A stretch of 64,000 nt of DNA, from contig JAKAPK010000002.1 of NCBI GenBank assembly GCA_021807125.1, forward strand, positions 140,253 through 204,252, in the 5' to 3' direction. The stretch's first letter is position 1, and each line of letters begins with the position of its first letter. The stretch comes from Nanobdellota archaeon (lineage in GTDB: Archaea; Nanobdellota; Nanobdellia; Parvarchaeales; Parvarchaeaceae). Positions 21,913-48,388 of the stretch are shown here, piece by piece. A model generated the notes under the pieces. It was not told the origin of the DNA and did no database searches. It worked only from the letters and a program-made list of their open reading frames with translations. The translations under genes were made by a program, and so were the position numbers.

Positions 21913-22410
21913 TTAGTTTTTCTTTAATTCAACTGTAAGCACGCCATCGGACAATTCATAAGAAGATAATCTGTATCGTTTGTCCACCGGTATTATTTTC
22001 ATATATAATTTTTTGCCTGCGAATGCCCTTATTTCGAGGGAGTTTTCCATCCTGGTTATAGTTACATCGGATCTTTTAGTAACGTCTGGTAACATTATCC
22101 TGTGGATGGATGAGTTACCGCTCTTAACCGCATCGTCCATTGGTTCTACAACTTGATCAACTTTTTGAGCAGGCCGTGTAAGGTCAGCTTTACTTTGTCT
22201 TGTAGGGGGCCTTTTGACGTTTGTTGGCTGCGAATTCGCGCCAGAAATCGATATCAGATTATTGAACATAGGGGATAACTTATTTACCATGTCTTGCACC
22301 ATATTCATAAGCTTATTGCTTTGCATTGGCGATAGCATATTGCCGCAGTAAGGACAAAAATCCCAGTTTCTCTCCATCTCCTTCCCGCACATTGAACATT
22401 GTCTCTGCAT
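21913..22410 (-). CDS. Zinc-ribbon plus Hsp20-like domain protein
   Basis: N-terminal CSMCG...FCPYCG; C-terminal IMLPDV...LEIRAFAGKKLYMKII...DGVLTVEL resembles an alpha-crystallin domain. Start set at MQRQC. Confidence 0.72.
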   Translation of the reverse strand: MQRQCSMCGKEMERNWDFCPYCGNMLSPMQSNKLMNMVQDMVNKLSPMFNNLISISGANSQPTNVKRPPTRQSKADLTRPAQKVDQVVEPMDDAVKSGNSSIHRIMLPDVTKRSDVTITRMENSLEIRAFAGKKLYMKIIPVDKRYRLSSYELSDGVLTVELKKN

Positions 22411-22524
22411 AAACCAATTTAAAACATAGAACATATTAAACGTTTTACATGTAATGCCGATAATTGAATTTATCGCGAAAACGGGTTAAGAAAAGGTTAA
22501 ATTTCTTAATTGAGAAGGTATTCT

Positions 22525-22773
22525 ATGGTAAGCGGAGATTCAATAGGTTATCTTAAATTATTATCGGTAATAGTCGGTTTGATATTTGTAAGTGCCGCGG
22601 TATCGCAGCTTTTAATATCTGTGCCGTACCTCACTCATTATTCCGGAAAGGCATTGAGTTATATTCCTTTTAATCTGCAAACGGTTTCTTGGGTCGTGCT
22701 TGTTGTTGGAATAATCCTTATAATAGTCGGTGTATTTGCATCAGAGATGGGCAAGTATTTCTCATATTATTGA
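22525..22773 (+). CDS. Small two-TM membrane protein
   Basis: Two hydrophobic helices; ATG at 22525 after GAAGGT. Confidence 0.6.
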   Translation: MVSGDSIGYLKLLSVIVGLIFVSAAVSQLLISVPYLTHYSGKALSYIPFNLQTVSWVVLVVGIILIIVGVFASEMGKYFSYY

Positions 22774-22774
22774 T

Positions 22775-22990
22775 ATGGGCTTTGTAGGCACTAGTATAAC
22801 GGACGAGGATGCTGAAGTTATATTGACTTCCTTAGTCAGAGCCTATTCGGTTATACCTTCTGAAGCAAGACAGTTTATTCCTCCCCTAGAAATAATGTTA
22901 GAGGCGATACCGCAGGAAGCAAGAAAGTATCCTCTTGAAGACGTAATAAAATTGCTTGCGTGGGCTGGTAAGAACCAGATAGTCATATAA
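22775..22990 (+). CDS. Hypothetical protein (71 aa)
   Basis: ATG 1 nt after the upstream TGA (coupled); MGFVGTSITDEDAEVIL... Confidence 0.6.
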   Translation: MGFVGTSITDEDAEVILTSLVRAYSVIPSEARQFIPPLEIMLEAIPQEARKYPLEDVIKLLAWAGKNQIVI

Positions 22991-23017
22991 ACTCTAGTAA
23001 TTTATCGTTGTTATAAT

Positions 23018-23650
23018 TTATGCCTGAGGACCGCTATTTGTTTTGCGCAAAACTGCTCTTAAATAAGACCACGAAATTGACCTGGCCCAATTTGTAAATG
23101 GCGGGCACTTTAACATTCTGCTCTTTTCCTTCCGACTCCCGGAGGAGGTATCGGTGGCTTCTGACAGTACTCTGACCTTGTAACCGCGCCACCTTAGTTC
23201 CTGTGCAGTGGATAAGACGCAACAGTCTAAAGTTAAACCTATCAACACTACAATGTCGAGGTCTTTCGGCTTGCCGACCAAGGAAGACAACCACTTTGTA
23301 AAGGCTTTCGGGTCCTGATACGGAAGACCGGGCTCGCGACCGGGATCGCCTATATTGTTTCTGGTCCATATTGGTGAGTTCATACATTTTATCCAAACCG
23401 GTTTAAGCTTTACGTCATCGGGTATTTGAGATCCGTAACCGAAAGTGCCTGGATTACAGCAATCGCCTAGGTCTCCCGGTCTCGGCTGTCTGTAGTCCGA
23501 TATTATTTCCGTTATTTTTATACTGTGTTCACGCAGAAATGGCATGAGAGTATCTGCTATGAAGCTTACTGAAGGCCGCAAAGCGTAGTGTTTTCCTCTT
23601 GGCGAAGCAAAATCGTTTTGAAGGTCTACGCAGACTATTTTTATCTTCAT
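23018..23650 (-). CDS. Isochorismatase-like cysteine hydrolase
   Basis: VCVDLQNDF, IKC, GLTLDCCVLSTA and VLSEAT family motifs. Confidence 0.85.
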   Translation of the reverse strand: MKIKIVCVDLQNDFASPRGKHYALRPSVSFIADTLMPFLREHSIKITEIISDYRQPRPGDLGDCCNPGTFGYGSQIPDDVKLKPVWIKCMNSPIWTRNNIGDPGREPGLPYQDPKAFTKWLSSLVGKPKDLDIVVLIGLTLDCCVLSTAQELRWRGYKVRVLSEATDTSSGSRKEKSRMLKCPPFTNWARSISWSYLRAVLRKTNSGPQA

Positions 23651-45488: not shown

Positions 45489-48388
45489 GGACTGTATGGT
45501 TGCTAAAAATTTTGACCTATTAGTAATCGTACGCTGAAAACCTCGGCTTTCGCCTTAGTTCTTACACGTCGATTCTATCAACGGGGTCTTCTTCCCCCGG
45601 CCTTAACGGTGCCTCTTTTTACGGAGGGTTTCAAGCTTAGATGCATTCAGCTCTTATCCCTTAACGCGTGGCAACGCGGCGTGCCCTGTCGGACAACCGC
45701 TAACTAGAGGCGTCGACTCGCTGTTCCTTTCGTACTAGTCGAATCTTCCATTCAAGCACCGAACACCTCCACTAGTTAAATACCGGCCTGCCTCGCGGCG
45801 GCCTGAACTCAGCTCACGGTCCCCTTTAACCAGTGAACACCTGTACCCTTGGCTGCTTATGCACAACCAGGATGGGAAGAGCCAAAGACTGTGGAGCAAG
45901 CTGCGAAGTCAATATGAACTATCATCCGCAACAACTCTCTTACGCCCAGGGTAGCTTTTCTGTCATACGAAGGAATCAAAAAGATACGCATTCGTGTTCG
46001 CTATGCCCGGCTTTCGCCTCTGTGCGCCTTGCTATGCAGCGCGCAGTCAAGCCATCTTTTGCCATTGCACTTAACAGCGGATTTCTATACCGCTTAAGAT
46101 GACCTTTGGGCTCCCATGATATCTTTTCGTGGGATTGCCACCCCAGCAAAACTGCCCATCTCCTGCTGTTCCCAGCGGGTAAGCGATATAAAACAGCGAA
46201 GGTAGTGTTACACTTTCGACTATCCCGCCCCCGAAAGAGCGGACATAACGTCTCCTACCTACTCTATGTTCGTTATTTTAGTACCGCAACAAGAGACTGC
46301 AGTAAAGTTCCTGGGGTCTTTTTGACCCAGTGGAGGTCCCTGGCCTTTGCACCAGGACGGTAGTTTCGCGGGTTTCCAAGTAGGGACAGTGGGAATCTCA
46401 TTACATCGTTCACAAGCCAACAATCAATTGGCAATGGATTATGCTTGCTTAAGAAGGTCACAGTTACCTCCGCCGCTAACAGGTCCTTATATCCGTTGGA
46501 ACGAACTTTCGGATACCTGTGCTGGGCAGATGTCGCCGGCTGTACTAAAGATTGCTCTCTCGCAGCCAGCTATGCCTTTGGTAAACAGTTAGACTCCCCT
46601 TGTCACTGCGCCCTGATTTAGCTTTTTAGACCAAACCAGGGATCCTTTCTCGCGAACTTACAGGACTAATTTGCCGATTTCCCTTACTCGGTTTAAAACC
46701 CACACCTTAGCCTTCTTAGCCAGCGCACCTGTGTCAGTTTTCGGTACGGTCACTGTGGCCCATAACTGATAATTTTTCATGGGGACAAAGAATCTACGGA
46801 CGTATTGCTACGTTATACAAACTTCCGCATCTTCTCGACATTACGTCTCTCGAATGCGTCGAAAGTATATGTGATCTGACAGGACCACTCCGCATATCTC
46901 TATCCGTATACCAGATAAGACCACCGTGGTTGTGGGATATTAACCACATTCCCATTTGTCGAGCACCTTTCGATGCAAAACTTAGGACCGACTAACCCTT
47001 GTTAGATAAGCTTAAACAAGGAACCCTTGCGCATGCGGTGGAAGGGATTCTCACCCTTCTATTTGCTACACCTCGCAGGCTTCTCAATACCTAAAGATCC
47101 AGTTCTCCTCACGAAGAACCTTCTAGTCCATAGGCACGCCCCTCTACCATCTCCTTTTGGGAGATCATGAGTTTCGGCAGTCTGCTTAGCCCCGTCCATT
47201 TTAGGGTCATCAAATCTAGGTTGGTAAGTTATAACACACTTTTTAAAGGATGGCCACTTCTGAGCCTACCTCCCAACTGTTTTAGAATTAATTTCCCTTC
47301 TACGCACTTAGTAGACATTTAAGGGCCTTAACTCATGGCCAGGTTTTTTCCTTTGAGGTATACAACTTTACGCCATATACCCAACTTATACACTATGCCG
47401 TATTGGTATTCTGAGTTTGACTGTGCAGTGGGACCTTTCGGTCCCCACCTGCATAATCAGTATCTTTACCCCCAACAAAGCAGCGTATAAGCTATCCTGT
47501 GGGATATTTCGAGGGGAACCAGCTATCGCCGCGTACGATTGGTTTTTCGCCCCTATACGCATATCAACGGAGGAGATAGTTCCCCACCCGGTCGGGCCTC
47601 CATGGGGAGTAATCCCCACTTCGCCCTGCACACGTATAGATCACGCGGCTTCGGGTATTATACACATGACTAGCGGCAGTTTCCTACCGACATCGTTAGA
47701 CGATGTTCGCTTTCGCTTCGACTTCCCTTTTCGGTTAGCCTTGCCATGTACATAAACTCCCTGCCCCTTTATGCTAAAAGGATGTTGCAACACTTGAGCG
47801 CACTTATTTATTCATGCGTTCACAACGCGCCGCAACAACTATGACTACCAGATTTCAGGATCTTTTTACCCTCTCGTCGAGAGTGCTTTTCAACATTCGC
47901 TCACGCTACTATACTCTATCGGTTTCGGGACGTATTTAGAGTTGGATGTTTTTGCCACCCATATTCGCAGAAGAGTCTCGACCTCTGCTACTCAACGCGA
48001 TGATTATGTAATTAAAACTTACGAGGCTGTCACTCTCTTTGGCATGACATTCCAGTCAACTTTGATTTTTCTTACACAATCATTTACCGCACCACATCTT
48101 CGCATTGCTGCGAATTCGGATCGCTCTCTTCCCTTTTCGCTCGCCGTTACTAAGGGAATCTTTATTAATTTCTTTTCCTGCAGGTACTAAAATGTTTTAA
48201 TTCCCTGCGTTCCTCTTCCCATCTTGCGACGGGAATCCGTGCATACGCACGGGCTTCACGCATTCAGAAACGACGTGATCGACAGCCGTGTGCGCCTACC
48301 ACGTCATTATCGCAACTTGCTGCGTCCTTCTTCAGCGCCCGAACCAAGTCATCCCTCTGGTAGCTTGGTGTAGACAACCATACAGTCC
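45489..48388 (-). rRNA. rrl: 23S rRNA (unlinked)
   Basis: Domain order recognisable, with P-loop CUGGGG, A-loop UGUUC, sarcin-ricin AGUACGAAAGGA and AAGACCCC; ends bracketed by a perfect 14-bp inverted repeat; about 2.9 kb. Confidence 0.97.

Follow-up and report, generated by a model that had tools for sequence, protein, structure and literature searches.

An archaeal LSU rRNA with an unchanged inner shell and a substituted second shell at the peptidyl-transferase centre, fixed across the order Parvarchaeales

Introduction

The peptidyl-transferase centre (PTC) is the textbook immutable RNA active site, and its natural divergence across a whole clade has so far been described in only one study (2024). 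Here we consider a 64,000-nucleotide stretch of DNA from a Nanobdellota archaeon of the order Parvarchaeales (assembly GCA_021807125.1, contig JAKAPK010000002.1, positions 140,253 to 204,252; the whole stretch is called the window below), which carries a large-subunit (LSU, 23S-type) ribosomal RNA (rRNA) gene. An initial annotation, made from the letters alone, had read in this gene a series of PTC substitutions with compensatory partners and had proposed an independent natural redesign of the ribozyme core. The locus thus raises the question of whether a cellular ribosome can have its PTC rewritten, and, if so, which of its layers has been changed and which kept. Our answer is that this is likely to be a working, single-copy LSU rRNA with a conserved inner shell and an outer shell rebuilt around it with swapped contacts.

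Results

Base states in the PTC

Positions were numbered after Escherichia coli by aligning the 3' 617 nt of the gene to the archaeal LSU model RF02540 with Infernal, whose posterior mark was maximal ('*') across the whole PTC; a second numbering, from a MAFFT alignment to E. coli rrlH, agreed with the first. The gene and the segments concerned are the following.

45504-48380, minus strand: LSU (23S-type) rRNA gene, 2877 nt; matches RF02540 with 2285.6 bits over model positions 1-2987
46316-46324, minus strand: 2055-2063, CAAAAAGAC; 2055 is C (46324), where most archaea and eukaryotes have A; G2061, A2062 and C2063 kept
46141-46143, minus strand: P loop, G2251-G2253, unchanged
45937-45944, minus strand: PTC ring strand 2447-2454, CGUAAGAG; canonical GAUAACAG
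45884-45894, minus strand: PTC ring strand 2497-2507, CCACAGUCUUU; canonical ACCUCGAUGUC
45831-45846, minus strand: A loop, 2545-2560; U2552, G2553, U2554 and U2555 unchanged; stem with lineage-specific bases that are matched by a C/D guide RNA
45819, minus strand: 2572, here C; E. coli has A, and most archaea have U, the deep genus of the order among them; lies behind 2504 in the second layer
45805-45811, minus strand: 2580-2586, UGAGUUC; G2582A at 45809; G2583, U2584 and U2585 kept
45779-45782, minus strand: 2609-2612, UAUU; A2610 (45781) complementary to U2505; U2611 pairs with A2057

In the Infernal alignment, the window reads GGCGUAAGAG at 2445-2454 (consensus GGGAUAACaG), CCACAGUCUUUG at 2497-2508 (consensus ACcUCGAUGUCg), CUGAGUUCAG at 2579-2588 (consensus CuGGGUUUAG), and CGGUAUUUAAC at 2606-2616 (consensus CGGuugCUAcC). 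Strand 2447-2454 is changed by G2447C, A2448G, and C2452G and keeps U2449, A2450, A2451, A2453, and G2454; strand 2497-2507 is changed by A2497C, C2499A, U2500C, C2501A, A2503U, U2504C, G2505U, and C2507U and keeps C2498, G2502, and U2506. In the Rfam consensus structure, helix 90 is closed by the 2507-2582 pair, which G2582A restores as U2507-A2582; the alignment shows no non-canonical mark there. Every substitution that had been listed at 2447-2452, 2497-2507, 2582, and 2610 was recovered in both alignments, at exactly the coordinates first given (2447-2453 at 45944-45938, 2497-2507 at 45894-45884, A2582 at 45809, and A2610 at 45781). With 2055 and 2572, the bases that back U2504, about 16 bases have been replaced (2055, 2447, 2448, 2452, 2497, 2499-2501, 2503-2505, 2507, 2572, 2582, and 2610, plus 2057/2611).

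Conversely, the bases that contact the substrates are all unchanged (G2061-C2063, G2251-2253, U2449, A2450, A2451, U2506, G2553, G2583-U2585, and A2602), and G2061-C2063, G2251-2253, A2450, A2451, U2506, G2553, G2583, U2585, and A2602 are also unchanged in the four other Parvarchaeales LSUs compared. The notion of a rewritten PTC thus holds for the second shell, which was replaced, and not for the substrate-contacting layer, which was left untouched; A2451, U2506, U2585, A2602, G2553, and G2251-2253 had already been named as kept, and they are. A different alignment register for 2497-2507 was considered and rejected, as the helix 89 segment measured 37 nt in 133/133 sequences and the flanking helices were canonical in length; the register is fixed because C2498, G2502, U2506, and G2508 match.

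A single LSU gene with a processing stem

The RF02540 match (2285.6 bits against a cut-off of 50) is full-length, with intact helices and few non-canonical pair marks in the Infernal alignment. A whole-genome profile search of this 653-kb genome (7 contigs, ~79% complete) gave exactly one LSU match, and relatives that are 91-100% complete (e.g., G019 and G014) have one LSU each. A second, canonical 23S gene, which the initial annotation had envisaged as the copy that might be expressed instead, was therefore found neither in this genome nor in these relatives. No 16S or 5S gene was found within the 64-kb window. The gene is flanked by two repeat arms:

45489-45502: processing-stem arm, 3' flank; perfect 14-nt inverted repeat pairing with 48375-48388
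48375-48388: processing-stem arm, 5' flank; pairs with 45489-45502

In a repeat search, these arms were 100% complementary and 2872 nt apart, and such a 14-nt inverted repeat is as expected for an archaeal rRNA processing stem. Because of this stem, and because a C/D small RNA (sRNA) of the same genome carries a guide matching the A loop of this very LSU (see below), the gene looks processed and used, and we infer that it is expressed.

Fixation across the order

The genome is that of a Parvarchaeum, in the acid-mine ARMAN-4/5 group. To follow the haplotype beyond this genome, the exact 20-mer GCUCCACAGUCUUUGGCUCU was searched in one genome per prokaryotic species. It was present in 17 Parvarchaeales species genomes, including those of ARMAN-4 (GG730077) and ARMAN-5 (GG745606), the carriers being Ca. 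Parvarchaeum acidiphilum ARMAN-4, Ca. Parvarchaeum acidophilus ARMAN-5, Ca. Acidifodinimicrobium mancum, and acid-mine Parvarchaeota/Nanoarchaeota. The order comprises a single family with three genera; 18/40 of its genomes contain the 20-mer, and the rewritten core set was seen in every LSU found in the order except for one canonical LSU in bin G024. Two rewritten LSUs differ within the 20-mer itself (G2508A in G047; A2503/U2504 in the deep genus g19, presumably Rehaiarchaeum). Seven metagenome contigs have the same PTC. One further match to the 20-mer was due to chance and lay in a bacterial coding region, and the non-rRNA matches of the 20/21-mer (L025, L051, L054, L056, L057, and L061) were likewise chance matches in coding DNA.

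The canonical LSU of G024 (L002, G024:C162:454-3357) sits on a 3.4-kb contig of a 1.7-Mb bin of 210 contigs and falls outside the whole class in the LSU tree, so it is probably mis-binned. A comparable case is the second LSU of G319 (G319:C1:2457-2609), which is of canonical non-DPANN type and lies on a short contig in a DPANN-assigned bin; both are probably mis-binned rRNA of a host or of the community. Among the metagenome contigs, L059 (Ga0326728_10000022) is 637,574 bp long, approximately the size of a whole Parvarchaeum genome, and may serve as a near-closed reference.

Within the order, LSU identity is only 68-84%, yet 37-42 of the 43 PTC-ring positions are identical. Since the ring has diverged much less than the remainder of the rRNA, it appears to have come under purifying selection after it changed. 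The earlier view that the haplotype is no sequencing error is borne out by the identical 20-mer in 17 other species genomes and by the seven metagenome contigs. Given the order-wide presence, the metagenome contigs, the single LSU in the relatives, and the processing stem, sequencing error, chimera, and pseudogene are excluded for practical purposes.

Rarity within the class

We then compared the haplotype with the rest of the class by extracting 2433-2512 from 131 class genomes with one degenerate pattern; 115 of these are non-Parvarchaeales. At the most telling positions, the counts among these 115 and the state in Parvarchaeales were as follows.

2505: G in 115/115; U in Parvarchaeales
2507: C in 115/115; U in Parvarchaeales
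2452: C in 89, U in 26, G in 0; G in Parvarchaeales
2497: A in 107, U in 6, G in 2, C in 0; C in Parvarchaeales
2501: C in 113/115; A in Parvarchaeales
2447: G in 112/115; C in Parvarchaeales

Other positions are loose in the same 115 genomes (82 have A at 2499; at 2503, 59 have A, 45 have C, and 11 have U; 19 have C at 2504; and 16 have G at 2448), and only 2/115 are fully canonical across 2447-2454 and 2497-2507. The DPANN class as a whole thus has a loose PTC second shell. Even so, the Parvarchaeales haplotype is non-canonical at 11 of the 19 ring positions (2447-2454 plus 2497-2507; 9 in the deep genus), compared with 7 in the next most divergent class genome. When 543 positions that are strictly invariant in E. 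coli and 16 other archaeal LSUs were examined, the window deviated at 19, and these changes were enriched in the PTC ring (3/18, compared with 16/525 outside; odds ratio 6.4, p = 0.02).

As a separate observation, A2503C marks the large family f17, where it occurs along with A2445; fibrillarin was absent in 3/3 f17 genomes tested.

Order of evolutionary events

The LSU tree was built with all trait columns masked. The stem of Parvarchaeales is long (0.36), and its sister is formed by families f13 and f16 (SH-aLRT 96). From their tree position, f13/f16 are probably the Jingweiarchaeales/CSSed11-243R1 group, which has been described as the sister of Parvarchaeales (PMC10134863). These families already have G2447C and A2448G and are otherwise near-canonical at 2497-2507. 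The deep genus g19 already has C2452G, A2497C, U2500C, C2501A, G2505U, and C2507U/G2582A and still has A2503, U2504, U2572, and U2610, whereas Parvarchaeum and Acidifodinimicrobium share A2503U, U2504C, U2572C, and U2610A.

Hence, C2499A is a class-wide state, and G2447C and A2448G were inherited from an ancestor shared with the sister families. The Parvarchaeales stem alone has C2452G, A2497C, C2501A, G2505U, and C2507U/G2582A, and U2500C, which some relatives also have, was fixed there too; A2503U, U2504C, U2572C, and U2610A date to the ancestor that Parvarchaeum and Acidifodinimicrobium share. The redesign first proposed is therefore only in part private to the order: C2499A is the class majority (82/115), A2448G is present in 16/115, and G2447C and A2448G extend to the sister families.

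Read in tree order, the 2452-2504 contact passed from C.U through G.U to G-C, and the 2505-2610 contact from G.U through U.U to U-A. The next pair inside helix 90, 2508-2580, varies among Parvarchaeum sequences (G.U, A.C twice, and A-U; L049 = G047, L053, and L060), which reads as pair-preserving covariation in the style of isosteric wobbles. The compensatory pairs that had been proposed are therefore complementary as described (G-C, U-A, and U-A) and were assembled stepwise, as the deep genus documents; replicated covariation is not part of the picture, each pair representing about one event on one stem branch.

A co-changed uL3 and the modification machinery

We next consider the protein that reaches towards the PTC and the guide RNAs of this genome, which lie outside the window.

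G000:C3:89541-90443, minus strand: uL3 gene, on the window's contig, ~50 kb upstream of the window
G000:C7:15118-15184, minus strand: box C/D sRNA, ~67 nt; terminal stem ACGGGC/GCCCGU; box D is AUGA

At the 'tryptophan finger' of uL3, this genome has GNLGAESMAKV where Thermococcus has GNLGPWHPARV, the PTC-proximal W being replaced by E. The motif GAESM (canonical GPWHP), with the same W to E change, was found in 12/12 Parvarchaeales uL3 sequences examined; P. calidifontis (Pyrobaculum calidifontis; PDB 9E6Q) has GPQAPA at this site, i.e., W to Q. W to E also occurs in families f16 and f19, and other residues are found in f3, f4 (one genome), f10, and f11. Parvarchaeales uL3 scored 150-183 bits against PF00297, compared with 216-291 bits for most class relatives. 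Among 18 other class genomes, the loss of the W showed a weak trend with the number of PTC changes (~3.9 vs. 2.3 differences, by hand count), and we make no claim of a link with strong PTC divergence beyond the two extreme lineages. Since these two independent divergent-PTC lineages have both lost the W finger, the data suggest a rule of protein-RNA co-evolution between this residue and the PTC.

The D' guide of the C/D sRNA (AGUGAACACCUG, 12 nt) is fully complementary to the A loop at 2548-2559, including its lineage-specific bases, and puts U2552 at N+5. The match of the D guide (CAAGGGUAGCUC) is to 2435-2443, immediately 5' of the rewritten strand, and has U2438 at N+5. In two scans, no C/D guides aimed at the rewritten strands were found, only this A-loop/2435-2443 pair. 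Loss of guided rRNA modification was rejected as a cause of the PTC changes, fibrillarin and L7Ae-family genes being present in 13/13 Parvarchaeales tested. A published remark has the CheckM marker TIGR03677 as missing in Parvarchaeales; this marker is presumably L7Ae/eL8, and a Pfam L7Ae-family gene is there in all 13. An altered genetic code or termination was rejected as well: aRF1 (G000:C7, ~22283-23386, plus strand) keeps GGQ, with NIKD in place of the usual NIKS stop-codon motif, and long open reading frames end in TAA (183), TGA (129), and TAG (78).

Other features of the LSU gene

Several further observations were made on the gene. Position 2058 is A (46321), the bacterial macrolide-sensitive state; about half of the class relatives have G instead, as does the canonical archaeal LSU L002. 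U2586C (45805) was seen in this genome only. The sarcin-ricin loop (45723-45736) has the tetraloop GAAA rather than the near-universal GAGA, by G2661A at 45729; G2661A also occurs in about half of the aligned class LSUs, and family f19 has GCGA. Outside the ring, 16 further positions that are invariant in E. coli and the 16 other archaeal LSUs read as changed in the alignment of these sequences. They include 1787, 1935, 1942, and 2395; A1787G, G1935A, and C2395A are order-wide, and C2395 adjoins the E-site base C2394.

Discussion

A proposed rearrangement of the scaffold

What might these substitutions do? According to the cryo-EM study of P. calidifontis, C2063, A2450, and C2501 form a base triple, and G2447 bonds A2451 and, with G2061 and C2501, holds a K+ ion; in E. 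coli, C2452 is the partner of 2504 and U2500 that of A2453 (bioRxiv 10.1101/2024.11.12.623245). In P. calidifontis, A2501 flips to syn and forms a Hoogsteen pair with A2450 (bioRxiv 10.1101/2024.11.12.623245). G2505-C2610 is a Watson-Crick pair in the E. coli and T. thermophilus 70S ribosomes and forms on erythromycin binding in S. aureus (PMC6685948). In yeast, W255 of uL3 holds A2397 in the syn conformation, the stacking of A2397 on U2873 braces the A-site amino-acid pocket A2872-U2875, and W255 also flanks A2941 (PMC5331904). By a constant offset, which is our own mapping, yeast A2397 corresponds to E. coli 2055, U2873 to 2504, A2872-U2875 to 2503-2506, and A2941 to 2572.

We propose that the inner shell would carry out the chemistry as in every ribosome, and that the replaced bases would be partners in scaffold contacts which were exchanged as sets, so that the scaffold positioning the catalytic bases would be kept with different pairs. 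The new scaffold would be richer in Watson-Crick pairs (U2507-A2582, G2452-C2504, U2505-A2610, and G2454-C2497): C2507-G2582 would have become U-A, C2452.U2504 would have become G-C by way of G.U, G2505-C/U2610 would have become U-A by way of U.U, and the G2454.A2497 juxtaposition would have become G-C. In the C2063-A2450-2501 triple, A2501 probably stands in for C2501 through a syn Hoogsteen pair, as in P. calidifontis, and C2447 would abolish the G2447-A2451 hydrogen bond together with the K+ site. Since U2500C, C2501A, and U2504C are common to both lineages, part of the P. calidifontis solution probably applies here. Finally, the brace formed by the uL3 Trp, A2055, and U2504, with the Trp also flanking 2572, which holds the A-site pocket in eukaryotes and archaea, would have been replaced as a whole; all of its rRNA members differ in the window (2055 is C, 2572 is C, and 2503-2505 are U, C, and U).

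In E. coli, C2452G alone reduced synthesis to 0.004 µM/h, compared with 1.03 µM/h, and C2501 was among the least tolerant PTC positions (PMC7049736). Because both sites are nonetheless changed and fixed in Parvarchaeales, epistatic rescue by the accompanying changes is implied. As a by-product, the ribosome is predicted to be intrinsically insensitive to A-site PTC inhibitors: anisomycin in yeast contacts the equivalents of G2061, G2447, C2452, U2500, C2501, and A2503 (PMC5331904), of which 5/6 are substituted in the window, the uL3 W is also lost, and changes of the W255 type confer resistance in yeast (PMC5331904). PTC-binding inhibitors are accordingly a possible selective force; rapid change along a long stem, with compensatory substitutions becoming fixed, would be sufficient to explain the pattern.

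Alternative explanations

Several points weigh against a rebuilt scaffold. The re-pairing is deduced from sequence and from contacts solved in other species. The 2505-2610 contact is real but conditional, being absent from some structures, and A2451 is as good a complement to U2505 as A2610. For each pair there is a single event, on one long stem branch (0.36), which is consistent with compensation and does not replicate it. Compensation may even have been unneeded at 2448, 2497, 2503, 2504, and 2505, which are mutationally flexible in E. coli in vitro (iSAT; PMC7049736). The 2057-2611 pair, A-U in this genome, is a mismatched A.G in most of the other Parvarchaeum LSUs. Across the 131 class genomes, clade structure dominated the mutual information between ring positions, with the top pair, 2445-2503, marking one family; this signal mostly tracks phylogeny and was discarded as pairing evidence. 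Lastly, with a genome that is ~79% complete, the single-copy claim leans partly on the more complete relatives.

Some of these points would suit relaxed constraint or drift, in which the DPANN second shell is tolerant, Parvarchaeales gathered the most changes along a long, fast stem, and the complementary pairs are coincidental in a gene that still functions. The scarcity of fully canonical class members (2/115), the wide variation at 2448, 2452, 2453, 2499, 2500, 2503, and 2504, the stem length of 0.36, the 16 otherwise invariant positions changed outside the ring, the mutual information that follows clades rather than pairs, and the flexibility of A2497, A2448, A2503, U2504, and G2505 in the iSAT assays (PMC7049736) all fit such a history. 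It does not readily explain why G2505 and C2507, invariant in 115/115 relatives, both changed, the latter with the exactly complementary G2582A, nor why 2452-2504 and 2505-2610 moved stepwise towards Watson-Crick pairs in tree order. Moreover, C2452G alone is dead in E. coli, the invariant-position changes are enriched in the ring (3/18 vs. 16/525, p = 0.02), and the ring, once changed, is far better conserved than the rest of the rRNA. We therefore regard drift as unlikely. A pseudogene or non-expressed copy, with a canonical LSU elsewhere, or an assembly or sequencing artefact, is scarcely credible: the incompleteness of the genome (79%) and the canonical LSU of the genus-assigned bin G024 would speak for it, but the latter lies on a 3.4-kb contig, falls outside the class in the tree, and is probably mis-binned, and the gene itself is a full-length 2285-bit match with intact helices and a flanking processing stem, is the sole LSU in relatives up to 100% complete, recurs in over 25 assemblies made independently from different sites and with different technologies (the ARMAN scaffolds of 2010 among them), has a ring under apparent purifying selection, and is matched by a co-adapted guide RNA.

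A more radical possibility is that the A-site half is differently built, with 2451-2454 and 2497/2503-2505 forming a short Watson-Crick helix (G2454-C2497, A2453-U2503, G2452-C2504, A2451-U2505, and possibly A2450-U2506) that continues helix 89, either as the active fold or as an inactive one adopted at rest. In that case U2505, and not G2447 and K+, would hold A2451, U2505 would not pair with A2610, and uL3 Glu, C2055, and C2572 would take the place of the Trp-A2055-U2504 brace. The four or five pairs are in register with the known 2452-2504 contact and are all Watson-Crick only in Parvarchaeum and Acidifodinimicrobium, G2447C removes the usual partner of A2451, and naked-RNA folding of domain V gave the helix a probability of ~0.5 in the window and 0 in the deep genus, a sister family, a canonical archaeon, and E. 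coli. However, folding of a 570-nt rRNA domain is unreliable and gave a probability of 0 even for the certain 2507-2582 pair; pairing of A2450 or U2506 would break A2450-C2063 and U2506-G2583, whose partners are all retained; the deep genus has G2505U without A2503U or U2504C, and so without two of the four pairs; and 2453-2503 does not covary elsewhere in the class. Both as a fold and as an account of how the A-site half is organized, we hold this to be improbable; if true, nature would have a second way of holding the catalytic adenosine of the ribosome. Together, the evidence favors a scaffold of known contacts rebuilt with exchanged pairs around an unchanged inner shell.

Comparison with known systems

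On this reading, a cellular ribosome can work with about 16 changes around an unchanged inner shell, including G2505U, C2452G, and C2501A. The sister families, the deep genus, and Parvarchaeum form an evolutionary series indicating which changes came together, and thereby offer natural epistatic rules for multi-site PTC redesign in ribosome engineering. The Parvarchaeales ribosome is also a structural target that may reveal an alternative scaffold, and intrinsic insensitivity to A-site inhibitors is predicted for a host-dependent nano-archaeon.

Laboratory resistance mutants (2447, 2452, 2453, 2500, 2503, and 2504 of halophilic-archaeal and bacterial 23S rRNA; W255C of yeast uL3, PMC5331904) affect the same bases and the same residue as here. 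They carry one to three changes, usually at a fitness cost, whereas in Parvarchaeales about 16 rRNA changes and the uL3 change are fixed in nature. Similarly, in the map of E. coli PTC single mutants (d'Aquino et al. 2020, PMC7049736), C2452G is inactive and C2501 is intolerant, while both sites are changed and fixed in Parvarchaeales.

No description of the Parvarchaeales haplotype was found in the full-text literature searched on Parvarchaeota, ARMAN, or DPANN with PTC or 23S rRNA, so that the novelty first supposed for it holds within that literature; the ARMAN-4/5 scaffolds have been public since ~2010. The closest precedent, and the sole published natural case found, is the divergent PTCs of Thermoprotei and Methanomethylicia. 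There, up to six positions are changed, all of them in the segments 2447-2453 and 2500-2504, as described by Nissley et al. (bioRxiv 10.1101/2024.11.12.623245) in a preprint that makes no mention of DPANN or Parvarchaeota. As in that case, near-invariant archaeal second-shell bases have been replaced naturally across a clade and the catalytic bases kept, and within the same two segments Parvarchaeales have G2447C, A2448G, C2452G, U2500C, C2501A, A2503U, and U2504C (g19 keeps A2503 and U2504). Of the P. calidifontis set (G2447A, A2453C, U2500C, C2501A, and U2504C; PDB 9E6Q/9E71/9E7F; bioRxiv 10.1101/2024.11.12.623245), 3/5 substitutions are identical in Parvarchaeales (U2500C, C2501A, and U2504C), and 2447 is changed in both, to C here and to A there. 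The uL3 tip W is lost in both, giving E here and Q there, and the substitutions of both overlap known resistance sites for anisomycin, linezolid, and chloramphenicol. In contrast, 2453 stays A in Parvarchaeales and is C in P. calidifontis, and at least nine further positions are changed; of the rearrangement with syn A2501 and loss of K+, Parvarchaeales display the sequence prerequisites (A2501 and a non-G 2447).

The two cases also differ in lineage, mesophilic acidophilic DPANN as opposed to hyperthermophilic Thermoproteota, and in extent, with about 16 changed positions compared with at most six in Thermoprotei/Methanomethylicia; the changes here reach beyond the published segments to 2497, 2505, 2507/2582, 2610, 2055, and 2572 and also include 2452G. 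The independent redesign first suggested for this locus is thus supported by an unrelated lineage, a sole LSU copy, and fixation and conservation across the order, and by its sequence it appears both independent of and larger than the Thermoprotei/Methanomethylicia case. What is new is the independent lineage, the much larger and partly different set of substitutions, and the ribosomal protein that changed along with them.

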